From: Patescibacteria group bacterium
Lineage (GTDB): Bacteria; Patescibacteriota; Microgenomatia; UBA12405
DNA: 64,000 bases
Direction of reading: 5' to 3'
Assembly: GCA_013387215.1 (NCBI GenBank)
Contig: WARW01000003.1
Location: 10,227-74,226, forward strand
The stretch's first letter is position 1. Every line of letters begins with the position of its first letter. A program made the translations under genes and the position numbers. Under the pieces are notes generated by a model. The model was not told where the DNA came from. It worked only from the letters and a program-made list of their open reading frames with translations, and did not search any database. Below are positions 18,583 through 34,704 of this stretch, in pieces.

Positions 18583-18584
18583 AT

Positions 18585-18803
18585 TTATAGAAGCTGGGCT
18601 GTATAGCCAGAATTTTTTATAATTTTTATTAAATCTTCTGAATTAAGTTTGTCAGAATCAAATTCAACAGTAACTAGTTTTGTTTCTAAATTAGCATCAA
18701 CAGAAATAACACCATTAGTATCTTCTAAGTCCATTTGAATTAATTTTGGACAGGAAGGACAATGCATGTCGGAAACTTTAAATGTATTTTTTTGATTAGT
18801 CAT
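18585..18803 (-). CDS. copZ: copper chaperone (HMA domain)
   Basis: 72 aa, '[11 protein letters not shown]' MxCxxC motif. Confidence 0.8.
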
Positions 18804-18811
18804 GTTGGTTT

Positions 18812-19222
18812 TTAATTAATAACTTCAAAAGTACCCGTGTACATGCCCATGGTGCAACTGAAACGATAGGTTCCAGGTGCAACTGGAGTAAATTCTTTTG
18901 TAACTTGAGAGTTAGGGATAAGATCAATTCGGTCTGAGAAAAGCCCGTGAGAAACAATACTTCCAGCGCAGCCAGCATTGCCAGATGAAGTAATTTGCCA
19001 AACCACTGGTATGTTGGCTTTAATTTTAAAATTGTTTGGAGAATAACCAGCAGCCGAAGCAGTCATCTTAACAATTTGTTTACCATCTACAACTTGAACT
19101 AAGTCAGGGCCAGAAGCTGCATTGGAAACAGAGGGGTGTTTTTGGCTAAATATGAAAAAACCAAAAACAACGATTAAAACTATCGAACCTAAAACATAAA
19201 ATAGATTAGAAATATTTTTCAT
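18812..19222 (-). CDS. membrane-anchored cupredoxin-like domain protein
   Basis: N-terminal TM; C-terminal 'GCAGSIVSHGLF...YRFSCTMGMYTGTFEV' paralogous to the C-terminal domain of the neighbouring fusion protein; alternative TTG start at 19249. Confidence 0.55.
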   Translation of the reverse strand: MKNISNLFYVLGSIVLIVVFGFFIFSQKHPSVSNAASGPDLVQVVDGKQIVKMTASAAGYSPNNFKIKANIPVVWQITSSGNAGCAGSIVSHGLFSDRIDLIPNSQVTKEFTPVAPGTYRFSCTMGMYTGTFEVIN

Positions 19223-19230
19223 AGTTTTTA

Positions 19231-20694
19231 TTAATGATGACAACCACAACCTTTTGCACCAGATTCAATAATAGTTGGGGCTGCTCCAACAGAGTTGATA
19301 TTGCCTGATTTATCAAGCACTTCAAAAGTGCCCGTAACCATGCCCATCCAACAACTAAACCGATAAATTCCAGGAGTGTTGACAGTAAATTCTTTAACAC
19401 TGGTGGTTCCTGGAACTAAATCAATTTGACCGGAAAATAGTTGGCGGGAGATGATGGCATTAGTGCAACCACTAGTGCCCGTATCCTCTATTTCCCATTT
19501 AACAGGTATTCCAGCGCGAACTTTAAGTTTATTTGGAGCATATCCAGCAGATGAAGCTTTAATATGGATGATTTGCTTACCATCAATAATTGGAGGTAAG
19601 TCAGTGGCAATATTTTGAGATATGGTTTTAGGGGAAGTTAGAGATTCCAGATTAGAAACGCCTAAAACTGCCAATTGGGCATTTATATTAAAAAAGGCGA
19701 AGAATAAAACCAGAATTCCGGCAATTATAGAAAACTGCTGAGAAAATTTTGGATTAGAAAAAAGTTTAATACTGGTTAAGCCAATTGTGAGCAGGCCTGG
19801 TAGGGTGCCAATAGCAAATAAGCCCATGATTAAGGCACCTTGTATTGGATTACCAGAAGCTAATGCCAGTGCTTGGACTGTAATAGTAAAACCGCAAGGC
19901 AAGAAAAAGGTTAAAGCTCCCATAATTACCGGAGCAAATTTGCCAGTAAAATTAGACTCGTCTGAAAATCGGCGGGTTAAAGATTTGGGTAATTGAAGAC
20001 GAAATTTTTGCAGAGCTTTTATGCCAAGCATTTGTAAACCCAGAAGAATCATTAAGACAGATACAGCGATCACTAGGCTGGCTGAAAAAAGCGGCGTCAA
20101 TCTGAAGAAATTACCAATTTGGCCCAGAATGGCGCCAAAAGCAAGATAAGATAAAACCCGACCAGTATTAAACAAAAAGTGCGGTTGTAGTTTTTTGACG
20201 GTGGAATCGGAATTTGAATAAAGATTGTTCCATTGTTGAGACAAAGATAAAATAATACCGCCAACAAGAGCCGCGCAACTGGAAAAACCAGCGAGCAGAC
20301 CGAAAAGGAAAAACACAGGTAGAGAACTTTGTGCATTAACTGATATTAAAGAGGAAAATCCAGATTTACCTAATAAAATAAAAACTAAAATAAATAAAAG
20401 GCTAAAAAATAATGAAGAAAAAACATTGAGACGTTTTTTTTCTATTGGGCAAGAAACAGCTTTGGTGTTTTGTTTAGAAAATGGCTTGAGTGAAAACCGA
20501 TAGTTATCTTTTAAAAAGATATCGTTTAAATCTTTTAAAGATATTTTTATATTTCTTTTTGTTTCAAGAGATAAAGTTGACTTAGCTAAGGAAACCTCGG
20601 CTTTAACAACTCCTTGCTGCTTTAAAAGTTTCTTTTCGATTAGAATTTCACAAGAAGGACAATGCAGGCCAGAAATATAAAATAATTGTTTCAT
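19231..20694 (-). CDS. HMA domain - DsbD/CcdA-like permease - cupredoxin fusion with C-terminal GCGCHH tail
   Basis: 'ISGLHCPSCEILIEKKL' (HMA); ~6-8 TM central region; 'SGCTNAIISRQLF...YRFSCWMGMVTGTFEV' (cupredoxin-like); terminal 'KGCGCHH'; start at internal ATG (MKQLFYISG). Confidence 0.6.
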   Translation of the reverse strand: MKQLFYISGLHCPSCEILIEKKLLKQQGVVKAEVSLAKSTLSLETKRNIKISLKDLNDIFLKDNYRFSLKPFSKQNTKAVSCPIEKKRLNVFSSLFFSLLFILVFILLGKSGFSSLISVNAQSSLPVFFLFGLLAGFSSCAALVGGIILSLSQQWNNLYSNSDSTVKKLQPHFLFNTGRVLSYLAFGAILGQIGNFFRLTPLFSASLVIAVSVLMILLGLQMLGIKALQKFRLQLPKSLTRRFSDESNFTGKFAPVIMGALTFFLPCGFTITVQALALASGNPIQGALIMGLFAIGTLPGLLTIGLTSIKLFSNPKFSQQFSIIAGILVLFFAFFNINAQLAVLGVSNLESLTSPKTISQNIATDLPPIIDGKQIIHIKASSAGYAPNKLKVRAGIPVKWEIEDTGTSGCTNAIISRQLFSGQIDLVPGTTSVKEFTVNTPGIYRFSCWMGMVTGTFEVLDKSGNINSVGAAPTIIESGAKGCGCHH

Positions 20695-20710
20695 ACTACG
20701 TAGTGTAGTA
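20694..20710. promoter_or_regulatory. dyad motif TACTAC-N5-GTAGTA abutting start codon of HMA-permease gene
   Basis: TACTACGTAGTGTAGTA, perfect 6-5-6 inverted repeat filling the 23-nt gap between M56 gene stop and next start. Confidence 0.4.
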
Positions 20711-20717
20711 GATGTTT

Positions 20718-21626
20718 TCATTCTTTGCAATGGTCTGATAAAGAGATGTTTTGGTGAGAGAATAAAACTTCGACACATTTGACCAAATGGTTGCATTGAT
20801 AGAAAATTGTAGATTTACCAATAAAGGTAGTAGTAAACAAAATGAGAACCAATAAAAATGAATTTAGGGTAAAGAAGTTTTTGAAATTAGGCTTCTTTTT
20901 ATCAACTAAAACCGAAACGCGTTCATGAAATTCAGAAAAATTATTGAGATAAAAATTATTTCTTGTGTCAGGTTCTTCTATTTTTAACAGAGCAGAAACC
21001 AATGGTGTTTTTGATTTCAATTGAGTTTGGGCATAATTATCACAATTTATTTCTACCAATGCAGAATAATTTTTGAATATCCAGACTTTCTTTGGGAAAG
21101 AAGGTAAAAAGTGGTTGATTAAATCAACAATAAAATCTTTTAAAGGGTCAAAATTAAATTGATGTTTTTGTTCATGAAAAATAATCGCTTCCAATTCTTT
21201 TGGATTAACGGTTTTAATTAATTTTTCCGATATATAGATTTGAGGATTTAAAAAACCTGAAGTAAAGGCAATGACTTCTTTAATTTTGATCAAGTTATAC
21301 TGATTTTGTCTTTTTGATTTAAGGTTGTTTAAAAATTTTTTAGTTAAAAATATTTTATTAAAAGAATAATCGAGAGATTTAAAGAAGCGAAGTAAAAGAA
21401 TAAATAATATTATTCCGGATAAAACATTTATATAAAATGTCGAAGAAATAATTAAGGGAATTAAATTTTGATGATTATTTTTTAGGGCATCTATTAAAAA
21501 TATCAACTGCATCGAAAATCCAGAGAATATCTTTAAAAAGGCGAGTGATAAAAAGGATATGTAAAGAATTCCTAAAGTTAGGATGAATAAAAAAGCTAGA
21601 TTTCTTTGAAAACTGATTTTAGTCAT
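20718..21626 (-). CDS. M56-family (BlaR1/MecR1-like) membrane zinc protease without penicillin-binding sensor domain
   Basis: 4 TM helices, 'IIFHEQKHQ' HEXXH; 302 aa; Cys/His-rich C-terminus 'CNHLVKCVEVLFSHQNISLSDHCKE'. Confidence 0.65.
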   Translation of the reverse strand: MTKISFQRNLAFLFILTLGILYISFLSLAFLKIFSGFSMQLIFLIDALKNNHQNLIPLIISSTFYINVLSGIILFILLLRFFKSLDYSFNKIFLTKKFLNNLKSKRQNQYNLIKIKEVIAFTSGFLNPQIYISEKLIKTVNPKELEAIIFHEQKHQFNFDPLKDFIVDLINHFLPSFPKKVWIFKNYSALVEINCDNYAQTQLKSKTPLVSALLKIEEPDTRNNFYLNNFSEFHERVSVLVDKKKPNFKNFFTLNSFLLVLILFTTTFIGKSTIFYQCNHLVKCVEVLFSHQNISLSDHCKE

Positions 21627-21984
21627 TATTTTTCAAATATTCTTTTAATAACTCAATATCATTTTTATTGTTTTTAATAGTATCGACAAATTGGGAAATA
21701 GCCAACTTACCATATGAACCGACCAAATTGCCGTAAATTCCAGACAGATTAGATTCGATAAACTGATCTTTATTTAAAATGGGAGTATAAAAATAAACTT
21801 TACCTTCTAGTTTTCTTTTGACTATTTTTTTATCTGACATTCGCTTGAGAACAGTCATAATTGTGGTGTAGGCCTGATCCCCTTTTAGACTCACTAGAAC
21901 TTCGGCAGGTTTTAAAGGACGGTTGGACTGCCAAAGGATATCCATTATCTTCTGTTCTAATTCACCAAGCATTTGGGTTTTCAT
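21619..21984 (-). CDS. BlaI/MecI/CopY-family transcriptional repressor
   Basis: 121 aa winged-helix 'LGELEQKIMDILW...PAEV...TIMTVLKRMSDKKIV...KVYFYTP'; no C-terminal Cys metal motif; 8-nt overlap with M56 gene. Confidence 0.8.
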   Translation of the reverse strand: MKTQMLGELEQKIMDILWQSNRPLKPAEVLVSLKGDQAYTTIMTVLKRMSDKKIVKRKLEGKVYFYTPILNKDQFIESNLSGIYGNLVGSYGKLAISQFVDTIKNNKNDIELLKEYLKNND

Positions 21985-22031: not shown

Positions 22032-23420
22032 TTATTGCTTACATTGACCATTGTAGACTGGTGAACAACCAAGTTGGCTGTCGGTTCGCTGGCCAGAAGT
22101 GTCGTCAATATGTTTACGAAGCACTTGTTCTAGCTCATACCCTTTTTGAGGAATGGTGGAGATTAAATTGTTTTGCTCTTTAGGATCGTCATTTAGGTTA
22201 TAAAGCTCTTTGTTGCCGTTTTCTAAAGTTAAAATAAATTTCCAGCCATCTGGAGTCTGATAGGACCTTTTAAATGTATAAAGTCGATAATCAGTTTCAC
22301 TAAATACACTGTGGGCGACAGATTTACCATCAAAAACCGGAGTAAGATCAGCACCTTTTGTCTGTTCAGGAACAGGGTTTTTTATTCCCAATAAATCAAG
22401 CGCAGTTGGAACTATATCGAGAGTGCTTACTAGTTCATTAATTCTTTGGCCTTTGGTTTGGCCTGGTTTGTGAATAGCAAACAAAACATCAACTAGTTCA
22501 CCATAAAGAGTGTGGCCATGATCAAAACGATTATGTTCGTAGAATTCAGTGCCATGATCACTCATAACGATAATAATTGTATTATCCAAAAGTTTCATGT
22601 TGTTGATCTGATCCATAAAGTTTTTGAATTCAGCATCGGTACGATTAATCTTTTCATCATAAATAGCCCGCCAAAAAGCCACATCTTCGGGTGATAGATT
22701 TAAACTTTTACCAGCTAAACCGTCTTCACGAAGTTGACCTTGTTCGGTTGGACTGCCAGTATATTTGCCGTTATATGGCTTTGAAACATAGCGATAATCA
22801 AAACCACCGGCTGGTGCATGCTGCCCGTGAACATCATAGCCATGAAGGAAAAGGAAAAACTGCTTGTTTTTATTCTGCTTTAACCAGTCAACTGCTCTTG
22901 GTATGCTGCCATCGAAACCACCGAAGGTGCCAGTGGGTTCATAATAAGTATCAAAACCTTGACTAAAACCAAACTGCGGCCCAACTCCAGCATCGCCAGT
23001 AAAACCGCCAGTAACAAAACCTTGTTTTTTAAGAATTTCAGCAAGGGTCATGGCATTCGGAGAAAGTTTTTTTAAATTAGAAATAGTTCCCTTTTGGGCT
23101 TTCATATCGTAATCACTAAATTTGTTGACAACTTTATGTTCGGATGGATACATAGAAGTAAAGACAGACATGTGGGTTGGCACTGTCCAAGATGACGGAC
23201 TGACAGTATTGGTAAATAAAGTTGACTTATCAATAAAAGAATCTAAATTGGGAGTCGTGTTCAAAGAATAGCCATATTCATGCAAATGCTTGGCCTGCAA
23301 GCCATCGATCGAAACAAGAATAAGATTATATTTTTTATGAAATAGTTTTGGAGAAATCTTTATTGCAGCAACGGTTAGTAAGCTTAGAACAATGACACCA
23401 ATAAGAAATTTAATTTTCAT
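22032..23420 (-). CDS. membrane-anchored sulfatase-fold (alkaline phosphatase superfamily) protein, divergent paralog
   Basis: Signal/TM; 'TTPNLDSF', 'SSWTVPTHMSVFTSMYP', 'MSDHGTEFYEHNRFDHG' sulfatase-family motifs; lacks KKEGYF tail. Confidence 0.75.
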   Translation of the reverse strand: MKIKFLIGVIVLSLLTVAAIKISPKLFHKKYNLILVSIDGLQAKHLHEYGYSLNTTPNLDSFIDKSTLFTNTVSPSSWTVPTHMSVFTSMYPSEHKVVNKFSDYDMKAQKGTISNLKKLSPNAMTLAEILKKQGFVTGGFTGDAGVGPQFGFSQGFDTYYEPTGTFGGFDGSIPRAVDWLKQNKNKQFFLFLHGYDVHGQHAPAGGFDYRYVSKPYNGKYTGSPTEQGQLREDGLAGKSLNLSPEDVAFWRAIYDEKINRTDAEFKNFMDQINNMKLLDNTIIIVMSDHGTEFYEHNRFDHGHTLYGELVDVLFAIHKPGQTKGQRINELVSTLDIVPTALDLLGIKNPVPEQTKGADLTPVFDGKSVAHSVFSETDYRLYTFKRSYQTPDGWKFILTLENGNKELYNLNDDPKEQNNLISTIPQKGYELEQVLRKHIDDTSGQRTDSQLGCSPVYNGQCKQ

Positions 23421-23493
23421 ATCAAGTAAATCAAATTATATAAATGATATAAGTGTTATATTAAATTTATCTTTTAAAAGCAATAGACCGTAA

Positions 23494-25023
23494 ATGCGAT
23501 TGGGTAAAAAAATATTTATATTTGGTTTGCTGGGATTGATGATAATTGGGAGCGGTTTTTTGATTATTAAAAAAGTATCAAAAAAAACCTGCGATAAATG
23601 CAACATAATGCTTATCGATGTTGATATTTTGAGAGCAGATGAACTTCCCTGCTATGGATATCCCCGAAACACAATGCCAAACATTTGTGAATTTGCCAAA
23701 AAATCAGTAAGTTTTAAAGATAATTATTCGACTTCATATTGGACACTACCAAGTATTTTTTCAGTAATTACTTCACTATATCCAACTTTTCATCAAATGC
23801 AGGTTAATTATATGTTTGCACTGTCGTCTAGAATTCCGACTTTAGCAGAAACTTTACATAAGCAAGGATATAAGACTGTTTATGTGGGACAAAAAGACGA
23901 TTTAATGTCTAGTTATAATGGCGGTTTCCGCGGTTATGATTTAGTAACTCAAGAACCAATTGAAAAAGTAATTGATGAACTTTCAAAAAGTTCTCAACCA
24001 TGGTTTATACATAGGTATATCAGTGAATTGCATATGCCCTATTTATTGCCAGATAATTTAAAACCTGTGGAAGATTTGCCGGTTCCAAAAAATTTACCAA
24101 CTACTTATTACACTTTCGATTTATTTTTTAATAAATATTTAAAAGAACATTACAAAGAAATATTTAAACAGAAAGCAATCGATGAATATAGAGCAATTAT
24201 TTTAGGACCAGATAAGGCAGATGATATTAGTGTGACCAATCTTTTTGATAAATTGAGAGCTGACGATAAAACCATAAATGAATATTTATTAGATGCCTGG
24301 AGACCGAGATTAGATTTTTATTTAAAATCGTTTGACGGAAAAAATCCCCAAGATGTGGCTTATTTAAGAATGATGTATGACACTAAACTAAAATATCTTG
24401 ATGAAAAACTAAAACCTCTTTTACAAAGACTAGACTCGAGTTCATTGTCAAAAAACACTATTACAGTGATTATGTCGGATCATGGTGAAGCATTTGGCGA
24501 GCACGGAACGTTTTCACATGAGGATAATCATTTCACTGAACTATTTTACACTCCTTTAATAATCAGGGCTCCTCAATTTGAAGCAAAACAAGTTGAACAA
24601 ACCACAAATATAGTGGATATATTTCCGACTATTTTAGATTTAACAGGTGAGAAAAAAATTGATATGCATCAAGGGCAATCATTAGTACCTTATATGAATG
24701 GCCAAACTAAAAACGATACTACATTCAGCTTGAGCCAATCAATAGAAGGAACGCTTTTACAAAATAAGAATTGGCTGTACTTTTTACCAAACAGCGCTAA
24801 AGATATGAATGAATCAGAACTCTATAATAAAACCATCGACCCCCTGGAAAAAGTGAATGTGACTGGACAGAATCAAGATTTAGTTAAAACACTTTTTAAA
24901 AAAGCTGATTTATTCCGCTCATACGGAGGGATTGATTATGAAAAAGAAGAAATACCGTTGCCAAACCGGATGAAGTTGGACCCAGATAAAATAGAACGCC
25001 TTAAAAAAGAAGGATATTTTTAA
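23494..25023 (+). CDS. sulfatase-fold paralog 1 (Thr at sulfatase Cys position)
   Basis: N-terminal TM; 'DELPCYGYPRNTMPNICEF', 'STSYWTLPSIFS', 'MSDHGEAFGEHGTFSHE'; C-terminal 'KIERLKKEGYF'. Confidence 0.75.
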   Translation: MRLGKKIFIFGLLGLMIIGSGFLIIKKVSKKTCDKCNIMLIDVDILRADELPCYGYPRNTMPNICEFAKKSVSFKDNYSTSYWTLPSIFSVITSLYPTFHQMQVNYMFALSSRIPTLAETLHKQGYKTVYVGQKDDLMSSYNGGFRGYDLVTQEPIEKVIDELSKSSQPWFIHRYISELHMPYLLPDNLKPVEDLPVPKNLPTTYYTFDLFFNKYLKEHYKEIFKQKAIDEYRAIILGPDKADDISVTNLFDKLRADDKTINEYLLDAWRPRLDFYLKSFDGKNPQDVAYLRMMYDTKLKYLDEKLKPLLQRLDSSSLSKNTITVIMSDHGEAFGEHGTFSHEDNHFTELFYTPLIIRAPQFEAKQVEQTTNIVDIFPTILDLTGEKKIDMHQGQSLVPYMNGQTKNDTTFSLSQSIEGTLLQNKNWLYFLPNSAKDMNESELYNKTIDPLEKVNVTGQNQDLVKTLFKKADLFRSYGGIDYEKEEIPLPNRMKLDPDKIERLKKEGYF

Positions 25024-25068
25024 TAGGTGGTATATTAAACTGATAATTAAAAGTAATAGGCTGTTTTA

Positions 25069-26613
25069 ATGCTCAAAAGAAAATATCAAAAAATTATAAT
25101 CGGAGCGGGATTTATTTTGTTGATTATATTTGGGCTAATAGGACTTTTTAAACGAACAAACAAATTGCCATTTAAAGCCTGTACCAACTGCAACATTATA
25201 TTAATTGATATTGATATTTTAAGAGCTGATGAATTGCCTTGCTACGGATATTCCCGAAATACCACCCCAAACATTTGTAATTTTGCGAAAAAGGGTATGA
25301 TTTTTAATGACAACTATTCTCCATCCTATTGGACTATGCCTAGTATGTTTTCCACAATAACGTCTCTTTATCCAACTTTCCACCGAATCCAAATGAATTA
25401 CACTGAAGCTTTGTCGCCTAAAATTCCAACCCTTGCAGAAACTTTACACAAACAAGGCTACCGAACAATCTATATTGGCCCGGAAGACGACATGTTAAAA
25501 CACAATAATGGCGGCTTACGCGGTTATGATTTAGTGACTCAAGAACCGATTGAAAAAGTGGTAAGCGAATTGTCGAAAAGTTCTCAACCATGGTTTGTGC
25601 ATTACTATAATAGTGATTTGCATGCCCCATATTTATTTAATGAAAAACCTCAATTGATTGATAATCTTCCCGCCCCTAAAAATTTTCCAATTACTTATTT
25701 AGATTTCAGTATTCTTCTAAATAAATATTTAAAAGAACATTACAAAGAAATATTCAAACAGAAAGCTATCGATGAATATAGAGCAATTATTTTAGGACCA
25801 GATAAAGCAGATGATATTAGTGTAACTACTCTTTTTAACAATATTAGAGGCGATAAGAAAATAATGAATGATTATTTATTTGATGCCTGGGTGCCAATAT
25901 TAAACACTTATCTTGGTTCTTTTGATAAAAATAATGCCGATAATGTGGCATATTTACGCATGATATATGATACTAAACTTAAGATAATAGACGATAAGTT
26001 GGGAGCGCTTTTTCAAGAGTTGGATTCAGAAGCACTATCTAAAAACACCATAACAGCAATTTCGTCAGACCACGGAGAAGCGTTTGGAGAACATGGAACT
26101 TTTTCACATGAGGTTAACCATTTCACTGAACTATATTACACACCTTTAATAATCAAGGCTCCACAATTTTCAGGAAAAATAATTAATGAAACCAGCAGCA
26201 ACATTGATATTTTCCCGACTTTTTTAGACTTAACCGGCAGCGAAAAAATTAATAATCAGCAAGGCAAATCACTAGTTTCTTATATGAATAATGAAAATAA
26301 AAGTTTAGAGGGCTTTAGTGTCAGTGAATGTTCGGAAGGAATATTGCTGCAAAATAAAAAATGGTTGTATTTTTTATCAAATGAGGTTTCAGAATTTAAT
26401 AAATCGGAACTTTACGACAGGAAAAATGATCCATTAGAAAAAAATAATGTGGTTGGAAAGAATCCAGAATTAGCTAGATCACTTTACCGACAGGCTGATT
26501 TGTTCCGATCCTATGGCAAAATTGAATATAAAAAAGAAGAGATACCAATTAGTGAGCAAATTAAGTTGGATCCAGAAAAGATCGAACGTCTTAAAAAAGA
26601 AGGCTATTTTTAA
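25069..26613 (+). CDS. sulfatase-fold paralog 2
   Basis: ~70% aa identity to paralog 1; ~108-nt near-identical tract; tail 'KIERLKKEGYF'. Confidence 0.75.
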   Translation: MLKRKYQKIIIGAGFILLIIFGLIGLFKRTNKLPFKACTNCNIILIDIDILRADELPCYGYSRNTTPNICNFAKKGMIFNDNYSPSYWTMPSMFSTITSLYPTFHRIQMNYTEALSPKIPTLAETLHKQGYRTIYIGPEDDMLKHNNGGLRGYDLVTQEPIEKVVSELSKSSQPWFVHYYNSDLHAPYLFNEKPQLIDNLPAPKNFPITYLDFSILLNKYLKEHYKEIFKQKAIDEYRAIILGPDKADDISVTTLFNNIRGDKKIMNDYLFDAWVPILNTYLGSFDKNNADNVAYLRMIYDTKLKIIDDKLGALFQELDSEALSKNTITAISSDHGEAFGEHGTFSHEVNHFTELYYTPLIIKAPQFSGKIINETSSNIDIFPTFLDLTGSEKINNQQGKSLVSYMNNENKSLEGFSVSECSEGILLQNKKWLYFLSNEVSEFNKSELYDRKNDPLEKNNVVGKNPELARSLYRQADLFRSYGKIEYKKEEIPISEQIKLDPEKIERLKKEGYF

Positions 26614-26654
26614 TTAGGTTAATATATAAATAATATATTGAATAAATAAATTAC

Positions 26655-28196
26655 ATGAAGATTCTTTTTTTTAGAGAAAAAAAATACCGCAAGATTATTG
26701 TGTTAGTTGGTATAGCATTAATAATTGGGTTAGTACTTGCATGGAAAAGATTGCCTGAAAAAAAGTGTGAACACTGCAATATTGTAATGGTAGATATTGA
26801 TGTCTTAAGAGCTGATGAGTTGCCTTGTTATGGATATTCCCGAAACACCACTCCCAATATTTGCCAGTTTGCCAAAAAGGCGACTATTTTTAAAGATAAT
26901 TATTCGACTTCATATTGGACTTTACCTAGTATGTTTTCAACAATTACCTCTATGCTACCCACCTTTCATAAGGTGAGAACTGAATTTATCAACAAACTGT
27001 CCCCTGATACAAAAACACTAGCCGAAGTTTTACATAGCCAGGGATATCGAACAGTATATATTGGCGACGGCCAGAATCCTGCTTTATTAACCAAAGATAA
27101 CGGAGGCTTGAGAGGTTACGATATTGTGACAAAAGAACCGATCGAAAAAGTAATTGCAGATCTTTCAAAAAGCTCACAGCCATGGTTTATCCACTATTAT
27201 TTAGTTGATTTACATATGCCTTATTTATTACCAGAAAATGTGAAACCAATGGAAGATCTGCCAGCTCCAAAAAATTTGCCAATAAACCAAACCGATTTTG
27301 ACCGCATGTTAAATACCTATTTAAAAAAGCACTATAAACAAATATTTAATGAAAAAGCGATTGGAAAATACGGCTCGGTTATTTTAGCTCCAGATAAAGC
27401 AGATGATACCAGTGTGACTAAACTTTTCAACGATTTAAGATGGACTAGTAAAAGCATGACTGAATATTTTATTGACAGCTGGAAGCCTATTTTTAATTCA
27501 TATATGGATTCATTTGATAAGAATAATCCCAATGATGTGGCATATATTAGAATGATGTACGATACAAAATTAAAACTGGCTGACGAGCAACTACAATCTC
27601 TTTTTATAAAATTAGAGACAAAACCATTTTCTGAAAATACGATCTCGATAATTATGTCAGATCATGGAGAAGCGTTTGGAGAACATGGAACTTTTTCCCA
27701 TGACAATAATAGTTATACGGAACTTTATCACACGCCGTTAATAATTCGGGCACCTGGACTGCCTGCTAAAATTGTGGACCAAACTTCAAGCAACCTAGAT
27801 ATTTTTCCAACAGTTTTAGACTTAAATGAAATAAAAAAATTAGACAGTTTTCAGGGAAAATCATTAGTGGACAGTGTCAATAAAAAAACAGAAACTAAAT
27901 CATTTAGTCTAAGCGAATATTCTGATGGTGTAATTTTACAAAACCATGACTGGCTGTATTTCTTACCATTTTGGGTTGATAAGTTTGAAAACTCAATGTT
28001 GTTTGATAGAAATAAAGATCCTAAGGAAAAAAATAATGCAGCAAAACAGAATTTAGAGTTAACTCACTTTCTTTATAAACAAGCTGATTTATTGAGATCT
28101 TATAATGGAATTATTTATAAGCCAGAGGAAATTCCAAGCGATATTAAATTAAATCCTGAAAAAATAGAGCGTCTTAAAAAAGAAGGCTATTTTTAA
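26655..28196 (+). CDS. sulfatase-fold paralog 3
   Basis: Same motifs; tail 'KIERLKKEGYF'. Confidence 0.75.
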   Translation: MKILFFREKKYRKIIVLVGIALIIGLVLAWKRLPEKKCEHCNIVMVDIDVLRADELPCYGYSRNTTPNICQFAKKATIFKDNYSTSYWTLPSMFSTITSMLPTFHKVRTEFINKLSPDTKTLAEVLHSQGYRTVYIGDGQNPALLTKDNGGLRGYDIVTKEPIEKVIADLSKSSQPWFIHYYLVDLHMPYLLPENVKPMEDLPAPKNLPINQTDFDRMLNTYLKKHYKQIFNEKAIGKYGSVILAPDKADDTSVTKLFNDLRWTSKSMTEYFIDSWKPIFNSYMDSFDKNNPNDVAYIRMMYDTKLKLADEQLQSLFIKLETKPFSENTISIIMSDHGEAFGEHGTFSHDNNSYTELYHTPLIIRAPGLPAKIVDQTSSNLDIFPTVLDLNEIKKLDSFQGKSLVDSVNKKTETKSFSLSEYSDGVILQNHDWLYFLPFWVDKFENSMLFDRNKDPKEKNNAAKQNLELTHFLYKQADLLRSYNGIIYKPEEIPSDIKLNPEKIERLKKEGYF

Positions 28197-28209
28197 ATAA
28201 ATTTGAAAG

Positions 28210-29727
28210 ATGGATAAAAAAATAAGAAATGTTTTATTGGTTTTGTTAATTTTTGTCGTGGGAACGGCAGTATTTGCATTAATAAAGACTAGGACAAAGA
28301 AAACCTGTGATCATTGCAATATTGTGATAATGGATATTGATATTTTAAGAGCTGATGAATTGCCCTGTTACGGATATTCCAGAAATACGACCCCAAATAT
28401 TTGCCAGTTTGCCAAAAAGGCAACTGTTTTTAAGGATAATTATTCAACTTCTGTTTTAACACTACCAGATATGTTTTCGATAATTACATCTCTTTATCCA
28501 ACTTTTCACCATGTGAACACAGCAACAATCGATAAACTTTCAGCAAACATCCCTACTTTGACTGAGATATTGAAAAAAGAAGGCTACAGGACAGTTTTTA
28601 TTGGAGATAGTGAATATTCTGGAACAATAAATAATCAAAACAATGGGCTAAGAGGCTTTGATATGGTGACACAAGAACCGATTGAAAAGGTAATGGAAGA
28701 ATTATCAAAAAGTTCTCAACCATGGTTTATATATTATTACTCAGGCGACTTACATATGCCTTATTTACTGCCGAAAAACACAAAACCGATGGAAAATATG
28801 CCGGCTCCAAAAAACTTACCGATAAACCAAACTGATTTTGATAAACGGTTAAATATTTATTTAAAAAATCACTACAAAGAGGTTTTTAATAAAAAAGCCA
28901 TTAAAGAATATTCTTCAATAATATTATCGCCAGATAAACCAGCAACTGAACTGTTTTATTCCTTAAAAAGTGACAATGAAAAGATGAAAGAATACTTAAT
29001 CGATGTGTGGAAACCTGAGTTTAACGTGTATATGGAATCATTTGATCAAAATAATTCTTCAGAGGTAAGTTATGTCCGAATGATTTATGATACAAAGTTA
29101 AATTTAGTTGATAATAAACTTGAAAAGGTGCTTAAAAAACTGGACACAAAAGAATCAATAAAAAATACGATTACTTTAATTTCATCAAACCACGGAGAAA
29201 GCTTTGGAGAACATGGAAATTTTTCCCATAATTTTAGTCCTCACTCAGAACTTTATTACACTCCATTAATAATTAAAGCGCCACAACTTAAGGCAAAACA
29301 AATCCAAAATACTTCAAGTAATATGGATATCCTACCCACAATTTTGGATTTAACTGGAATAAAAAAGTTAGACAGTTTTCAAGGAAACTCATTGATCGCT
29401 AGTATTAATCAAAAAGAAAACTTAGAAAATTTTGCCATGAGTGAATATTGGGGAAATATAATTTTACAAAATAAAAAATGGCTATATTTTTTACCAGCAG
29501 AAGCTAAATACATTGAGCAATCAATGCTTTTTAATAAAGAGAATGATAAAGATGAAAATACCAATGTGTCGATGCAAAATACAGAACTAGTAAAGATGCT
29601 TTACAAAAGGGCGGATTTGCTACGTTCTTATAGTGGAATTAATTATAAAATAGAAACTATTCCTACTAATGAAATAAAAATAGATCCTGAAAAAATTAAG
29701 AGGATTCAAAAAGAAGGATATTTTTAA
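28210..29727 (+). CDS. sulfatase-fold paralog 4
   Basis: Same motifs ('SSNHGESFGEHGNFSH'); lacks KADDISVT segment; tail 'KIKRIQKEGYF'. Confidence 0.7.
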   Translation: MDKKIRNVLLVLLIFVVGTAVFALIKTRTKKTCDHCNIVIMDIDILRADELPCYGYSRNTTPNICQFAKKATVFKDNYSTSVLTLPDMFSIITSLYPTFHHVNTATIDKLSANIPTLTEILKKEGYRTVFIGDSEYSGTINNQNNGLRGFDMVTQEPIEKVMEELSKSSQPWFIYYYSGDLHMPYLLPKNTKPMENMPAPKNLPINQTDFDKRLNIYLKNHYKEVFNKKAIKEYSSIILSPDKPATELFYSLKSDNEKMKEYLIDVWKPEFNVYMESFDQNNSSEVSYVRMIYDTKLNLVDNKLEKVLKKLDTKESIKNTITLISSNHGESFGEHGNFSHNFSPHSELYYTPLIIKAPQLKAKQIQNTSSNMDILPTILDLTGIKKLDSFQGNSLIASINQKENLENFAMSEYWGNIILQNKKWLYFLPAEAKYIEQSMLFNKENDKDENTNVSMQNTELVKMLYKRADLLRSYSGINYKIETIPTNEIKIDPEKIKRIQKEGYF

Positions 29728-31292
29728 TGAAAGGCTTTTTAAGTAGAAAAAAACTTTTGTTGCTAGCATTATTGATTTTATTGTCGATAGTAATTGGTTT
29801 TGGATCGTGGACTTTTTATAAAAAAACAGAAAATAAGTCCGAAAAAAAGTGCGAGAATTGCAACATAATGCTTATTGATATTGATATTTTAAGAGGTGAT
29901 GAATTATCCTGTTTGGGATATTCCCGAAATACCACCCCAAACATTTGTGAATTTGCCAAAAATGGAGCTGTTTTTAAGGATAATTATTCGACTTCATATT
30001 GGACTCTTCCAAGTATATTTTCAACCATGACTTCTTTGTATCCGACTTTTCATGGGATGCAAAATGCAGGCAAGGATATTCTCTCTCCAAACATTACAAC
30101 TTTGGCTGAGGTGTTACATAAAAAAGGATATATGACGGTTATGGTAAACGGAAATAAAGATACAATGCAAATGCTGTTTGGCGATAATGAGGGTTTGAGA
30201 GGCTTTGAAATGGTTACAGCTGATCCGGTTGAAAAAGTTATAGATGACTTATCAAAAGACAATAGACCTTGGTTTATTTATTACTATAACTCAGAGCTGC
30301 ACTTTCCATATTTATTGCCAGAAAACACAAAACCGATGGAAGATTTGCCAGCTCCAAAAAATTTACCAATAAACCAAACTGATTTTGATACTTTACTAAA
30401 TAAATATTTAAAGACTCATTATACAGAAATATTTAAGCCAAAGATAATTGATAAGTACGGTTCGATTATTTTAGGGTCAAATAAAGAAGATGATATGGGT
30501 ATGGTGAAAATGTTTAATACTTTAAAAGCGGATCCTTCAAAAGTAAGCGAATATTTTATTAATGACTGGAATGCAAATTACCAAACTTACATGGAGTCGT
30601 TTGATCAAAATAATCCATCTGACGTTAAATATGTGCGAATGCTTTACGATACAAAATTAAAATTACTTGATAATAAAATGGGAAGTGTTTTACAAAAATT
30701 AAATTCGAAACAGCTTTCAGAAAATACAATCACAGTTATTACTTCAGACCATGGAGAAAATTTTGGAGAACATGGTTTTTTTACCCATATTGCCGATTTT
30801 CATTCCGAAGTGTTTTATATTCCATTAATTATTAAATCACCCAACATTTTACCGACAACAATCGAGCAAACAACAAGTAATATTGACATATTCCCTACTC
30901 TTTTAGATTTAACTGGCATCAATAGCCCGGGCGGACTACAAGGGATTTCTTTAGTTCCGTATATTAATAATCAGCACACAGAAAAACAATCATTTGCTAT
31001 GAGTGAATATTGGGGAAATGTGATTTTAGAGAATCATGATTGGCTGTATTTTTTACCTAAAGATGAGCAAGGTGTAGTCAAACCCACGTTCTATGACAGA
31101 ATTAAAGATCCGGCAGAAAAAGAAAATGTCATAGATAAATATCCTGAGATGGTAAATTCCCTTTATAAACAAGCCAGCCTGCTTCGCTCTTATAATGTTT
31201 TCTATGAAAATAAACCAATAGTAAAACCTGATGTAATCAAAAACATTGATAAAGTAAAATTAGATCGATTAAGGAAAGAAGGTTATTTTTAA
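29727..31292 (+). CDS. sulfatase-fold paralog 5
   Basis: TAATG start/stop overlap with paralog 4; tail 'LDRLRKEGYF'. Confidence 0.75.
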   Translation: MKGFLSRKKLLLLALLILLSIVIGFGSWTFYKKTENKSEKKCENCNIMLIDIDILRGDELSCLGYSRNTTPNICEFAKNGAVFKDNYSTSYWTLPSIFSTMTSLYPTFHGMQNAGKDILSPNITTLAEVLHKKGYMTVMVNGNKDTMQMLFGDNEGLRGFEMVTADPVEKVIDDLSKDNRPWFIYYYNSELHFPYLLPENTKPMEDLPAPKNLPINQTDFDTLLNKYLKTHYTEIFKPKIIDKYGSIILGSNKEDDMGMVKMFNTLKADPSKVSEYFINDWNANYQTYMESFDQNNPSDVKYVRMLYDTKLKLLDNKMGSVLQKLNSKQLSENTITVITSDHGENFGEHGFFTHIADFHSEVFYIPLIIKSPNILPTTIEQTTSNIDIFPTLLDLTGINSPGGLQGISLVPYINNQHTEKQSFAMSEYWGNVILENHDWLYFLPKDEQGVVKPTFYDRIKDPAEKENVIDKYPEMVNSLYKQASLLRSYNVFYENKPIVKPDVIKNIDKVKLDRLRKEGYF

Positions 31293-31298
31293 AAACAG

Positions 31299-32831
31299 AT
31301 GAAAAAAAAGATAAGTTTATTATTAATTGGATTAATGGTTTTTTTTACAATCGCTGCTTTTTTAATAAAAAAAGAAGTTATTAATAAACCTAAAATCTGC
31401 AAGCATTGCAATATCATGCTTATTGATGTGGATGTATTGAGAGGAGATGAATTGCCCTGCTATGGATATTCCCGAAACACCACCCCAAACATTTGTGAAT
31501 TTGCCAAAAATGGAGCTGTTTTTAAGGATAATTATTCGAACTCAATAATGACGCTGCCAAGTATGTTTTCCACTATCACTTCGCTTTATTTAACTTTTCA
31601 TAAAGTAGAAGTAAGTTTTGCTGATAGACTTTCGATAAAAATACCAACTTTAGCAGAGACATTACAAAAAGAAGGATATAGAACTGTATTTATAGGCAAA
31701 AGCGATGACCCTTCCACACTAAACCAAGAAAATGGAGGTTTACGAGGTTATGATTTAGTGACTCAAGATTCAATCGATAAGGTTGTGGACGATTTATCAA
31801 AAAGTTCTCAACCTTGGTTTGTGCACTACTATAATTCAGATTTACATATGCCCTATTTATTGTATGATGGCATGAAACCAATGGAAAATTTGCCAGCTCC
31901 GAAAAATATGCCAATCAGTTATTCGGATTTCGATAAACTGTTAAATACTTATTTAAAAAAACATTCAACTGAAATATTTAATAAAAAAGCAATTGAGGAA
32001 TATTCATCAACAATATTGGCACCAGATAAAGAAAACGATGTGAGCGTGACCCAGCTTTTTTATACCCTTCGCAATGATCCTAATAAAATGAAAAAATATT
32101 TAATTGATGGCTGGAAACCGATTTTTGATTCTTATATGGGATCGTTTGATAAAAATAATGAAAAAGATTTGGCTTATTTAAGGATGATGTATGATTCTAA
32201 TCTTAATTTGGTGGACAAAAAGTTGGAGCCAGTTTTGAATAAATTAAAATCAAAATTATTAGCAAAAAACACTATAAGTATATTTATGTCAGACCATGGC
32301 GAAGCTTTTGGTGAACACGGAACTTTTACTCACGACTACAACCATCACACAGAGCTATTTTATACACCATTAATAATTAAAAGTCCTAGTTTTTCAGGAA
32401 AAGTGATTGACCAAACTACAAGTAATATCGATATTTTTCCAACTATTCTCGAACTTGCAGGAATTAGAGACCCAGGTGTTTTACAAGGACAATCGTTGGT
32501 TCCGCATATGAAGGGAGTGGCCGAAAATTCAAGACCATTTGCCATAAGTGAATATTACAATGGCACGGTTTTACAAAACCATAACTGGTTTTATTATTTA
32601 CTGAACAGTGAAAATATTGAAAATTCGATACTTTATGACAAAATAAATGATCCTTTGGAAAAGGATAATGTATCTTTAAAACATCCAGACTTAACAATGA
32701 ATCTTTTCAAACAAGCAGATATTTTGCGTGTATATAATAGAAATTATAATAAGGAAGAGATTCTAAGATCCGAAAAGACTGGATTAGATCAGACAAAAAT
32801 AAAAAGGATTCAAAAAGAAGGATATTTTTAA
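31299..32831 (+). CDS. sulfatase-fold paralog 6
   Basis: 76-nt tract near-identical to paralog 5 (SRNTTPNICEFAKNGAVFKDNYS); tail 'KIKRIQKEGYF'. Confidence 0.75.
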   Translation: MKKKISLLLIGLMVFFTIAAFLIKKEVINKPKICKHCNIMLIDVDVLRGDELPCYGYSRNTTPNICEFAKNGAVFKDNYSNSIMTLPSMFSTITSLYLTFHKVEVSFADRLSIKIPTLAETLQKEGYRTVFIGKSDDPSTLNQENGGLRGYDLVTQDSIDKVVDDLSKSSQPWFVHYYNSDLHMPYLLYDGMKPMENLPAPKNMPISYSDFDKLLNTYLKKHSTEIFNKKAIEEYSSTILAPDKENDVSVTQLFYTLRNDPNKMKKYLIDGWKPIFDSYMGSFDKNNEKDLAYLRMMYDSNLNLVDKKLEPVLNKLKSKLLAKNTISIFMSDHGEAFGEHGTFTHDYNHHTELFYTPLIIKSPSFSGKVIDQTTSNIDIFPTILELAGIRDPGVLQGQSLVPHMKGVAENSRPFAISEYYNGTVLQNHNWFYYLLNSENIENSILYDKINDPLEKDNVSLKHPDLTMNLFKQADILRVYNRNYNKEEILRSEKTGLDQTKIKRIQKEGYF

Positions 32832-32838
32832 AAAATAA

Positions 32839-34227
32839 ATGAAAAAAAATTATTTTTATATAGTTTTGGCAATTTTTAGCGGATTAATGATGTTCCCCCA
32901 ATTGATGATTAAGTACCCTTCTTTAATTGATGATGGAGTTAATTTTTTAACAGTAAAAAACAATAATTTTTTTCAAATATTTTGGCACCAACTATTTATT
33001 GATGAAAGAACAAGACCATTACAACTGATTTTTAGAAAAATACTTTTTGAAATTTGGGGATTTAATATATCGGGGAATTTTTTGGCTTACACCTTATTAC
33101 TTTTTGGAGTTGGGGTTATGGTTTGGAAAATTTTGGAAGGCATATTTAATGACAATAAAATAAAATGGTTAAGCCTTTTACTGTTTACTTTACCAGGAGT
33201 TTATGCGAATTTTTATCGTTTAGGCACAGATGAAACTATACAATTATTTTCAATTTTGGTAGTTATTGCCTTAGTAATCAGAAAGAAGTGGAAATGGGGC
33301 ATGATTGTGATGTTAATAAGTTTATTAACGAAGGAAACTTCTATTTTATTTTTGATGGCTCTTTTAGTGTTTTATTTGGTAAACAAACGAAAAAAAGAAG
33401 CGGTTTGGGGTGTGATTGGAGCTGGATTATTTATTTTTTTAGTCTGTTTTAAATATCAGTTTTATGAATCGGCAACATATATCCGAACTGGAGAATTATC
33501 TTGGAAACATATAATGTATAGTTTTACCTCTCACCCAGTCTTGGCAATACTGGTGATTGTTTTGCCAATTTTACTTTGGATAAAAAGAAAGGCTTTGGGA
33601 GAAAGAAATGCCTTATTAATGGCCTTATTAATTAGCAGTTGTATTGGAGAAATTGTAATTTGGGATGTAAGACAGGAATACTACTGGTTAATAATAGAAG
33701 TATTAATCTCGATTGGAATTGCGATGGCTCTTAGTCAAATAAAATATTGGCCGTTAATGCTGGTAATGTTGGCGTACTTAAATTTTAATAACACCATGTA
33801 TGAGATTAAGTATTGGCACGGAAAATATCTGAAAGACGAAGTCTTGGTTGAATATTTACTCAACAAAAATTGGAAAAATACAAATGTTTATATAGACGAT
33901 AATGATTTTGAAGAAAACGATAAGATACGCTATTATATTAGTTCCTGGAACACTGGGGCAAAAAGTATTTATCCAGATACTGATATTTGGCTAGTAAATC
34001 AAACTAAAAAAGATAGAAATTATTTTATCGAAACAGCCAAAAATTCAATTAAGCTATTTAACGAAAATAAAACCAATAGCGTTTTGATTTCAAATAATGA
34101 AGAAGATTTATATAAAATGGGAAAAGAACTTTCAGTTGATTTTCAGCAAGCAGCTAGAAAAATATGCGGAAAGTCATGGTTGCTTTCTAATCCCGATTGT
34201 TTTTTGATTATTGAAAAGAATCAATAA
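32839..34227 (+). CDS. polytopic membrane protein, ArnT/GT39-like glycosyltransferase candidate
   Basis: ~10 TM helices, 'FIDERTRPLQLIF', 'LLTKETSILF'; 7 bp after last sulfatase-fold paralog. Confidence 0.45.
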   Translation: MKKNYFYIVLAIFSGLMMFPQLMIKYPSLIDDGVNFLTVKNNNFFQIFWHQLFIDERTRPLQLIFRKILFEIWGFNISGNFLAYTLLLFGVGVMVWKILEGIFNDNKIKWLSLLLFTLPGVYANFYRLGTDETIQLFSILVVIALVIRKKWKWGMIVMLISLLTKETSILFLMALLVFYLVNKRKKEAVWGVIGAGLFIFLVCFKYQFYESATYIRTGELSWKHIMYSFTSHPVLAILVIVLPILLWIKRKALGERNALLMALLISSCIGEIVIWDVRQEYYWLIIEVLISIGIAMALSQIKYWPLMLVMLAYLNFNNTMYEIKYWHGKYLKDEVLVEYLLNKNWKNTNVYIDDNDFEENDKIRYYISSWNTGAKSIYPDTDIWLVNQTKKDRNYFIETAKNSIKLFNENKTNSVLISNNEEDLYKMGKELSVDFQQAARKICGKSWLLSNPDCFLIIEKNQ

Positions 34228-34236
34228 TAATTCGAT

Positions 34237-34704
34237 TTACTTGATTGCTTTTTCGCGATGACAGACCAAATTCTGTTGGTGCTTCTTTTCTAAATAATCA
34301 GGAATAGATTGGGCAGTTTTTTGATAATAGCTATAGATGGCTTCAGTGAGAGCGTCAGCGGCTAAAAGGGAACAATGAATTTTGACAACCGGAAGATTGT
34401 CGAGAGCTTTGATAACATCTTGATTACCAATTTTTAGAGCATCTTCAAGAGTCTTGTTTTTAGCCAAATCAGTGACCACACTACTGGTAGCAATAGCAGC
34501 AGCGCAACCAAGGGTCTCGAATTTAACATCTTCAATAAATTCTTTGCCTTCCGAATTTTTAGAAATTTTTAAATATAGTTTCATAACATCACCGCAAGTC
34601 AGATTGCCAACCTCGCCAACTGCGTCCGCATTGCTAATAGAGCCAAAATTATGGGGATTTCGAAAATGTTCTAAAACTTTTGGAGAGTAAGATAAATTGG
34701 TCAT
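34237..34704 (-). CDS. Fe-S cluster assembly scaffold (NifU/IscU/SufU-like)
   Basis: 'GNLTCGDVMKLY', 'LGCAAAIATSS', 'KIHCSLLAADAL' three conserved Cys. Confidence 0.85.
   Translation of the reverse strand: MTNLSYSPKVLEHFRNPHNFGSISNADAVGEVGNLTCGDVMKLYLKISKNSEGKEFIEDVKFETLGCAAAIATSSVVTDLAKNKTLEDALKIGNQDVIKALDNLPVVKIHCSLLAADALTEAIYSYYQKTAQSIPDYLEKKHQQNLVCHREKAIK

Follow-up and report, generated by a model that had tools for sequence, protein, structure and literature searches.

An A-type gene and a tandem array of six B-type genes make up a conserved two-part module in the window, the whole stretch of 64,000 nucleotides analysed from contig WARW01000003.1 of a Patescibacteria group bacterium (Table 1). 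The products fall within a large, so far uncharacterised family, a variant inside a known superfamily, with A the slowly evolving and B the faster-evolving partner. On balance we lean towards reading them as membrane-tethered, extracytoplasmic, metal-dependent phosphoryl-transfer enzymes on an S1-sulfatase-like scaffold, most likely hydrolases.

Table 1. Positions of the A/B genes, their intergenic region and the downstream gene in the window
Feature	Position	Strand	Description
A-type gene	22032-23420	-	462 aa, Thr-nucleophile sulfatase-fold protein
A/B divergent intergenic region	23421-23493	.	73 bp, AT-rich
B1	23494-25023	+	509 aa, B-type Thr-nucleophile sulfatase-fold protein
B2	25069-26613	+	514 aa
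B3	26655-28196	+	513 aa, copy chosen for modelling
B4	28210-29727	+	505 aa
B5	29727-31292	+	521 aa
B6	31299-32831	+	510 aa, final array copy
PMT_2/GT-C-like (weakly) membrane protein	32839-34227	+	462 aa, polytopic

The original prediction described seven genes, namely six co-oriented paralogs and a divergent one across a 73-bp spacer, and this layout was reproduced to the nucleotide. All seven ORFs are intact, the six plus-strand B ORFs encode 505-521 aa with gaps of -1 to 45 bp, and the gap between the minus-strand A gene and B1 is 73 bp. From A to B1 and onward to B6, the spacings are 73, 45, 41, 13, -1 and 6 bp, the start codon of B5 overlapping the stop codon of B4 (TAATG), and the next gene follows B6 after 7 bp. 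The B copies share 52-65% protein identity and 62-79% DNA identity in pairwise comparison, and about 30% identity with A. B2 is the sister of B1 (65% identity; bootstrap 100), while B5 is the most divergent copy. B1, which is identical to database protein P0003, contains a CxxC motif and two more Cys, WTLPSI, SDHGEAFGEHGTFSH, a C-terminal ...RLKKEGYF and one TM helix. In the divergent spacer, an extended -10-like element, TGATATAAG, lies at 23445-23453 on the plus strand, oriented toward the B array, and a TATAAT match at 23440-23435 on the minus strand is oriented toward A, forming the candidate TTAATA-18-TATAAT, in a promoter scan that stayed overall at chance level in such AT-rich DNA. TGnTATAnT-like elements also occur in the matching A/B spacers of six other loci (L001, L003, L005, L007, L017 and L019).

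The predicted sevenfold expansion is instead an amplification of B to six tandem copies; A is a separate orthologous family and not a seventh copy. A-type proteins keep 69-77% identity between genomes and 54% to the homologue from Geoanaerobacter. A adjoins B in all of the 11 other B-containing loci sampled, which are all apparently from Patescibacteria. The copy number, which the original prediction proposed to check in related genomes, turned out to be one B copy in six of these loci, two in four and five in one, against six here. The proposed phylogeny of the paralogs showed that only B is amplified and that B copies group by genome; in each of five genomes they form a single clade (bootstrap 73-100), so B was amplified repeatedly and independently. 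B branches are about twice as long as A branches. In Geoanaerobacter, the A-like gene is followed by two more sulfatase-fold genes of a third type, and RREFLKR near the start of its A-like protein looks like a Tat signal. Fused two-domain relatives mostly retain both catalytic sets.

All seven proteins match PF00884 Sulfatase in Pfam (E about 1e-35 to 1e-36), and SGSH_C likewise. The models made with AF2 have a pLDDT of 93.3 for B3 and 91.9 for A. Kyte-Doolittle windows gave one hydrophobic N-terminal segment per protein (B6 has a second above-threshold window), and the modelled TM helix spans residues 9-31 of B3 and 2-21 of A; the predicted combination of a single N-terminal TM with a sulfatase fold is thus supported by Kyte-Doolittle, Pfam and AF2 (B3 and A) alike. 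Over its full length, the family profile aligned with two S1_11 sulfatases, 7p24 (1.6e-57) and 5g2v (1.6e-51). B3 carries a helical insertion at about 193-290, and a flexible linker precedes its ...KIERLKKEGYF tail. Four Cys are invariant in B (Cys38, Cys41, Cys58 and Cys70 in B3) and A has a C-terminal pair (C452 and C460); together with the N-terminal helix, these Cys suggest that the A and B proteins are most likely extracytoplasmic. With a single TM anchor and a linker of about 10 residues, the catalytic domain would sit at the membrane surface, so action on lipids or lipid-linked polymers, transfer included, is conceivable.

The nucleophile position separates these proteins from the sulfatases that they resemble. 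When aligned by HMMER with solved sulfatases and phosphonate monoester hydrolase (PMH), the proteins place the Thr of 'YWTLPS' where C/S-x-P-x-R has its formylglycine Cys/Ser, and another residue stands in for the Arg. The predicted exchange of Cys for Thr with loss of the Arg was borne out, Thr lying on the formylglycine Cys/Ser in every alignment and Arg being changed to M, I or H, and the proposed comparison with PF00884 members likewise placed Thr there, with no C/S-x-P/A-x-R. A regex scan found [CS]x[PA]xR at the nucleophile position in none of the seven proteins. Some details of the predicted motifs need correction around this Thr core: the preceding residue is W, L or M rather than W, Y or L; the minus-strand gene has T-V-P-T-H, with His at +4 instead of Ile/Met, as well as SDHGTEFYEHN and 'TPNL' instead of SDHGE.FGEHG and 'TPNI'; and B4 has SNHGE instead of SDHGE. 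The catalytic residues of B3 are D49, T89, H187, D336-H337-G-E339, H344 and H349, and those of A are D39, Thr79 (in SSWTVPTH), H198, D288-H289, H296 and H301. Among the other sulfate-site residues, the second Asp is changed to V, I or T, the Lys-x-His loop (K113/H115 of PAS) to G-D-G-Q, and the distal Lys375 aligns with His349. Since Thr occupies the nucleophile position and the Arg is missing, the A and B proteins are not formylglycine sulfatases, and with the sulfate-binding residues replaced, the expected chemistry is that of phosphate and not of sulfate. That they are true sulfatases, relying on an unusual nucleophile or on Cys/Ser at another site, is therefore very improbable and largely refuted, although Pfam names the domain 'Sulfatase', the best NCBIfam and PDB matches are sulfatases and source databases label the proteins 'arylsulfatase A-like' or 'choline-sulfatase'. 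Every NCBIfam sulfatase score is far under its cutoff, formylglycine cannot arise from Thr by oxidation, and Thr-bearing PF00884 members are explicitly excluded from SulfAtlas (PMC5066984).

The Thr is kept in 125 of 127 close homologues; among 150 diverse representatives, which contribute about 165 domains, it is present in 157 of these domains. In these family domains D49, H187, H337, H344 and H349 are each at least 90% conserved, while D336 is conserved in about 73%. The Thr, His and Asp catalytic positions of A-type proteins are invariant in 73 sequences. The full catalytic set is present in A and in five of the six B copies; the exception is B4, in which Asn takes the place of the Asp metal ligand (SNHGE) and the nucleophile motif reads LTLPD, its remaining catalytic positions being intact. 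The same D-to-N change was found in both B copies of locus L020 and in 11 of the approximately 165 aligned family domains. In the arylsulfatase of E. faecium, the D311N mutation abolishes activity (PMC12421950), and by position we take D311 to be the equivalent of the Asp336 ligand. Since roughly one family member in four departs from Asp336, and D-to-N kills a related sulfatase, some copies may have little or no activity. It could further be supposed from this loss in B4 and several relatives that some of the copies, or all of them, have no catalytic role and act in binding or regulation, as pseudoenzymes like PbgA/YejM that bind phosphorylated molecules of the envelope or sense them. We consider this improbable, because the 90-97% conservation of the Thr, four His and Asp49 across the diverse domains, and their invariance in A, point to purifying selection on the catalytic site, which is complete in nearly all copies here. 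PbgA/YejM (LapC), a protein with five TM helices, serves Gram-negative bacteria as a regulator that senses LPS, whereas the A and B proteins have essentially a single N-terminal TM helix; with the PbgA/YejM model NF038282, whose cutoff is 825, they score 29-48 bits. Moreover, one study presents YejM itself as a metalloenzyme (PMC7576196).

For the favoured phosphoryl-transfer enzymes, the following mechanism may be proposed in B3 numbering. A single divalent metal would be bound by Asp49, Thr89, Asp336 and His337, and the metal-activated Thr89 would attack a phosphate ester, whose phospho group would become covalently linked to Thr. The phosphoryl oxygens would be bound by His187 and His349 (Glu339-oriented), which would also supply a proton to the leaving group, and water would then resolve the phospho-Thr intermediate. 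Directly observed are the fold, which residues stand at the catalytic positions and how well they are conserved, the pairing of A with B and the independent duplications; the geometry of the metal site (from sequence correspondence), the phosphoryl chemistry, the choice of hydrolase over transferase, the tail's role and the substrate are inferred.

The closest relatives in both sequence and fold are S1 sulfatases (the S1_11 GlcNAc-6-O-sulfatases BT3177, 7p24, and BT4656, 5g2v), choline sulfatase and PMH. Common to them and to the proteins here is the two-subdomain fold with an SGSH_C-type C-terminal subdomain, and B-type proteins have the long helical insertion as well. Also retained are the first Asp, the His of 'H-x-P' and the D-(N/H)-G Asp; a His directly after this last Asp is shared with PMH, SpAS2 and EfAS. 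The A and B proteins differ from them by Thr in place of the formylglycine Cys/Ser and by the one-helix anchor. Compared with PMH, Thr and His occupy the formylglycine and distal Lys positions of 4upk, and the PehA model, with a cutoff of 900, gives 67-103 bits. The A-type protein also scores 57.6 bits with Pfam Phosphodiest, above its threshold of 23; its T-x-P-x-H...YP..H motif resembles the nucleophile motif of NPPs (PF01663), some of which are also single-pass anchored ectoenzymes. No assayed or solved member of the Thr-type clade was found in literature and solved-structure searches.

A different comparison is offered by MCR-1/EptA/EptC and LtaS, which have a Thr nucleophile, a metal set of an acidic residue, Thr, Asp and His, and two more His, as appears from sequence to be the case here. 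MCR-1, EptA and LtaS are also extracytoplasmic, with disulfide-forming Cys. The SDHGE-x8-H spacing of B3 equals that of Asp465/His466/Glu468/His478 in MCR-1, whose roles have been described (PMC5216409). The proteins might thus be envelope-decorating phosphotransferases. These would pass a phosphoethanolamine- or phosphoglycerol-like group from a donor through Thr to a surface glycopolymer or lipid of the cell itself, and having six B copies would provide for different decorations or acceptors. The tight tethering of the domain to the membrane agrees with this, as do some gene neighbourhoods. The module of L020 lies inside a glycopolymer cluster (ABC-2 exporter, Wzy_C, GT4s and PLP decarboxylases), a setting which would suit a decorating transferase, Acyl_transf_3 and GT2-GtrA genes are found near the modules of L003, L005 and L012, and the PMT_2-like gene lies downstream of the array in the window. 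Flanking genes, however, differ between module loci. The host-lipid-modifying role raised in the original prediction is speculative.

The downstream gene itself, predicted as 'ArnT/GT39-like', does encode a membrane protein following the array, but its PMT_2 match is borderline (26.0 bits against a Pfam cutoff of 26.1) and its homologues were never beside such arrays: no PMT_2-like gene adjoined them in the screened loci, and no PMT-type gene was seen in further annotated loci. It partially matches the NCBIfam surface-glycopolymer family AZOBR_p60025 (8e-13; 48 bits against a cutoff of 150), and only four homologues were found among 5.8 billion proteins, the two checked both lying within glycopolymer biosynthesis clusters. 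This gene is probably co-transcribed with the B array here, and it is outside the conserved module.

The original assignment to the LtaS/EptA/OpgB type stands for the set of catalytic residues but not for the rest. With the NCBIfam models of these families the proteins reach at best 15-37 bits, where the cutoffs lie at 493-1250, the fold is nearer to hydrolytic S1 sulfatases and PMH, and the proteins have an extra C-terminal subdomain and one TM helix. To our knowledge, the characterised lipid-donor transferases (LtaS, EptA/B/C, OpgB, BcsG and GacH) have a polytopic N-terminal membrane domain. The Geoanaerobacter homologues, judged by their N-termini, appear to bear export signals and not membrane domains. 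The transferase role is the less likely reading; because the polytopic domain is absent, we think it most likely that the proteins hydrolyse their substrates, as phosphodiesterases or phosphomonoesterases, and are not lipid-donor transferases.

Two regions of B may bear on the function of such hydrolases. Residues 134-148, the most variable internal segment, sit at the position of the S1 K-x-H loop, and this variable loop next to the putative active site is consistent with diversified leaving-group specificity among the six copies. The C-terminal tail is more conserved among the paralogs than the whole protein (71% against 56% identity), and 66 of the 150 representatives end in GYF. In choline sulfatase and PMH, C-terminal tails bring about oligomerisation and extend to the neighbouring active site (PMC5870055). 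By analogy, the invariant ...EGYF tail of B is probably an oligomerisation or active-site-completing arm. It is a rather speculative extension that A and the B copies form a two-component surface phosphoesterase, in which B docks through its EGYF-COOH tail on A or B and phosphodiesters of the host or the environment are cleaved.

If true, the amplification of B would represent a diversified repertoire with which episymbiotic CPR bacteria scavenge nutrients or gain access to their hosts, and candidate targets would be polymers or lipid head groups, such as teichoic-acid-like glycopolymers, phosphoglycans and phospholipids. The family would then also be a natural case in which an S1 sulfatase scaffold has exchanged its formylglycine chemistry for one based on Thr.

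All seven open reading frames of the original prediction were recovered exactly where it had placed them (7 of 7), comprising one A-type gene and six B-type paralogs (B1-B6). Successive B-type genes are spaced by 45, 41, 13, -1 and 6 bp, and the spacer of the divergent A/B1 pair is 73 bp. In the Pfam search, every protein matched Sulfatase (E ~1e-35 to 1e-36) as well as SGSH_C, the sulfatase C-terminal subdomain, and all seven carry a hydrophobic N-terminal segment, which is modelled as a helix in both predicted structures (B3 and A-type). The B-type copies share 52-65% pairwise protein identity with each other, against ~30% with the A-type protein.

Coordinates of the array, its neighbourhood and related modules (positions in the window unless a locus is named)
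Feature	Location	Strand	Remark
Cellulose-synthase-like GT2 (516 aa) and PMT_2 protein (500 aa, 5.7e-13)	11460-14448	+	GT2 overlaps start of PMT_2 protein
Copper/heavy-metal-resistance-like operon	15490-21984	-	directly upstream of A-type
HMA P-type ATPase, 1030 aa	15490-18582	-	
Cupredoxin	18812-19249	-	
HMA-DsbD_2-cupredoxin fusion, 521 aa	19231-20796	-	
M56/M48 sensor-protease-like protein	20718-21626	-	
BlaI/CopY-type repressor	21619-21984	-	
A-type ORF, 462 aa	22032-23420	-	
B-type ORFs, six, 505-521 aa	23494-32831	+	
Rrf2 regulator, NifS-like cysteine desulfurase, NifU-like scaffold	34237-36258	-	Fe-S assembly operon, immediately downstream of array
A-like gene and two 556-aa sulfatase-fold genes ending ...IPYP	L024 10001-14902		Geoanaerobacter pelophilus, cultured Desulfuromonadota
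666-aa PF01663 phosphodiesterase-family protein, one A-like gene and a B-like pair with xGYF tails	L023 3908-11255		
Divergent A/B loci, ten	L001, L003, L005, L007, L008, L012, L017, L018, L019, L020		

It had also been proposed that Thr replaces the sulfatase Cys and that the motif Arg is gone, and both were borne out by alignments with solved structures and a motif scan. HMMER placed the Thr of "YWTLPS" on the formylglycine Cys/Ser of PMH (4upk, NPCGPSR), choline sulfatase (6fny, PLCAPAR) and the S1_11 sulfatases (7p24 and 5g2v, SGPSR), with Met, Ile or His at the position of the motif Arg, and the scan found [CS]x[PA]xR at the nucleophile site in none of the seven copies. Among close homologues, 125 of 127 have Thr in this column, as do 157 of ~165 domains aligned from 150 cluster representatives (50% identity clustering). 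A Cys or Ser elsewhere as formylglycine precursor was looked for by alignment, and none is present. In the known characterised enzymes that belong to the alkaline-phosphatase superfamily, a Thr nucleophile accompanies phosphoryl, not sulfuryl, transfer. The names given in the source databases are "arylsulfatase A-like", "choline-sulfatase" or "sulfatase"; on the evidence, these are misnomers across a family that numbers at least ~1,800 clusters (50% identity clustering, E <= 1e-30). True sulfatase activity, as these names imply, has the scaffold on its side and the nucleophile against it, and is very unlikely. Thr within PF00884 proteins is already a known phenomenon, and according to SulfAtlas the members bearing it are not to be named sulfatases (PMC5066984). 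Structure alignments found no Thr-bearing solved structure within the S1-like group.

AlphaFold2 gave models with pLDDT of 93.3 for B3 and 91.9 for the A-type protein. Foldseek ranked PMH, choline sulfatase and Bacteroides carbohydrate sulfatases highest for B3 (E ~1e-23), and the family profile aligns end to end, including the helical insertion, with the S1_11 GlcNAc-6-O-sulfatases 7p24 and 5g2v (1.6e-57 and 1.6e-51), so the scaffold is of the formylglycine-sulfatase type, unlike LtaS or EptA. To locate the active site, we transferred the canonical S1 residues onto the window proteins through sequence alignments (B3 numbering). Asp49, His187 and Asp336 are kept, while the second canonical Asp becomes V/I/T, the nucleophile Cys becomes Thr89, the motif Arg becomes M/I (His in A-type), the Lys-x-His loop becomes G-D-G-Q, the Asn becomes His337 and the distal Lys becomes His349. 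The spacing of Asp465/His466/Glu468/His478 in MCR-1 equals that of SDHGE-x8-H in the window proteins. The MCR-1 ligands of Zn1 are Glu246, Thr285, Asp465 and His466, and the phospho-Thr of this enzyme is contacted by His395 and by His478, which is oriented by Glu468 (PMC5216409). From the residue mapping and this spacing match, the residue set corresponds in sequence to that of phosphoethanolamine transferases, and we infer the metal-site geometry from the same correspondence. Thus, the LtaS/EptA-type arrangement originally suggested holds for the residue set, but not for the scaffold or the membrane part, which is a single TM helix.

A pseudoenzyme role is possible for some copies. B4 has Asn for Asp336, and D311N, at a position that we take to be equivalent, inactivates an arylsulfatase of E. 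faecium (PMC12421950). This Mn-dependent enzyme was rejected as a Thr-type relative, its nucleophile being Cys61/formylglycine. The same Asn occurs in both B copies of L020 and in ~7% of aligned family domains, and the change is therefore a recurrent variant, not a one-off defect. Substitutions of Asp336 were seen in 4 of 15 copies from multi-copy arrays and in 0 of 6 single-copy genes, numbers too small to carry meaning.

The seven genes do not form one sevenfold expansion, as had been claimed: all are sulfatase-fold genes, but the A-type is a distinct orthologous family and B alone is amplified. A-type proteins of different Patescibacteria genomes share 69-77% identity, the identity to a Geoanaerobacter pelophilus protein is 54%, and 59 columns are invariant in an alignment of 73 sequences. 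B-type proteins share only 45-59% identity between the genomes compared, and their branches are ~2x as long as those of A in neighbour-joining trees. Their hallmarks are four invariant Cys (CxxC and two more), a helical insertion of roughly 70 residues and a C-terminus that hardly varies, ...(R/K)(L/M/I)xx(E/D)GYF. Neighbour-joining also makes the within-genome B copies monophyletic in five genomes (bootstrap 92% for the window, 77 for L017, 85 for L020, 73 for L001 and 100 for L023), so B underwent at least five independent amplifications, unless the copies were homogenised by older gene conversion. The closest relative of the window set is L017 (bootstrap 90%), whose two copies duplicated separately. 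Recent gene conversion among the window copies was rejected: they are only 62-79% identical at the DNA level and lack long identical tracts, which also marks the duplications as old. Conservation among the six copies is highest at the nucleophile region, at the DHG motif and in the C-terminal tail (tail identity 71% vs 56% overall). The most variable internal segment, residues 134-148, aligns where S1 sulfatases hold the sulfate-binding Lys-x-His loop.

A adjoins B in 11 of 11 other B-containing loci examined, with one B copy in six, two in four and five in one; the window has six. Ten of these loci are divergent (see table; L002 duplicates the L001 locus over a shorter stretch). In the distant CPR relative L023, A and B are co-oriented between map and infA in a ribosomal-protein cluster (ribosomal-protein/SecY/adk/map ... 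infA-rpsM), a placement that hints at constitutive, housekeeping-level expression. In three genomes (L009-L011) and in Geoanaerobacter (L024), what follows A is instead a paralog of a third type, with ...(I/S)PYP or SYP at its end. The L024 A-like protein has an RREFLKR motif resembling a Tat signal, and a gene with an FGE-sulfatase domain lies ~9 kb from the module. Besides, the A/B modules on contigs L004, L007, L008 and L012 are clearly Patescibacteria-like, yet the MAG records assign these contigs to "uncultured Pseudomonadales", "Gammaproteobacteria" or "Candidatus Methanoperedens", probably through binning or taxonomy error. Fused relatives with two domains, 860-1,550 aa long, retain both catalytic sets in most cases, and such natural fusions are consistent with tandem paralogs acting jointly. 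Several (P0149, P0158, P0169, P0183, P0186, P0221 and others) contain two tandem Thr-type domains per chain; ...LGY-like motifs lie near domain ends.

Module neighbours vary by locus, with envelope and glycan genes recurrent, such as Acyl_transf_3 (three loci), GT2-GtrA and GH130; L020 has a complete glycopolymer cluster. In L017 (3575-7708), a 1,377-aa alpha-2-macroglobulin-like protein with Pfam matches including Hint/PT-HINT (intein-like) adjoins the module. The array was said to end at an ArnT/GT39-like protein; a 462-aa gene does follow B6, but its PMT_2 score is borderline (26.0 bits vs a cutoff of 26.1). This protein has only four homologues among 5.8 billion proteins, and the two that were located lie in glycopolymer clusters, neither beside an A/B module. 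The gene is absent from the related loci screened for module neighbours and was rejected as a conserved partner. The window holds at least two PMT_2-like genes, and the one within 11460-14448 is the clearer match. In seven loci, the A/B spacer contains an extended -10-like element, TGnTATAnT, that faces B. We kept this cross-locus conservation as evidence and set aside the generic sigma-70 promoter/terminator scan, because its 57 sites vs 64 expected are at chance level in the AT-rich window DNA. Across the whole 64-kb window, Rfam gave no family, tRNA included, at gathering score. PADLOC defence models matched none of A, B3, B4 and the PMT_2-like protein, so the idea of a defence system was abandoned.

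The observation behind the original prediction is thus confirmed and its interpretation supported in part. The reading with the most support is that these genes form a conserved module whose products are extracytoplasmic and act as metal-dependent phosphoryl-transfer enzymes, their S1-sulfatase scaffold bearing a Thr nucleophile. Hydrolases are favoured over lipid-donor transferases because there is one helix here, whereas the known characterised transferases of the superfamily have a polytopic membrane domain. In place of such a domain, Geoanaerobacter homologues appear from their N-termini to have export signals of the Tat, Sec or lipoprotein type. A decorating-transferase role, with an active site resembling that of phosphoethanolamine transferases, is a serious rival. 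Choline sulfatase and PMH oligomerise through their C-terminal tails, which extend to the adjacent active site (PMC5870055); by analogy, the invariant EGYF tail probably serves as an arm for oligomerisation or for the active site.

The chemistry of the superfamily is well understood. For the Thr-type S1-like clade we found neither a solved structure nor specific literature, and literature searches gave nothing specific on the A and partner gene module, its conserved C-terminal tails or CPR sulfatase-like proteins. The family joins S1-sulfatase architecture and a phosphotransferase-type active site, a natural case for nucleophile and substrate-class switching in the alkaline-phosphatase superfamily. 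The pair is open to experiment in cultured Geoanaerobacter, which has the 54%-identical A-type gene and two partner genes. Nutrient scavenging or host interaction is a candidate role for these paired surface enzymes, which are conserved and of which the second was independently amplified in at least five genomes; this is of relevance for CPR organisms, reliant as they are on external lipids, nucleotides and phosphate.
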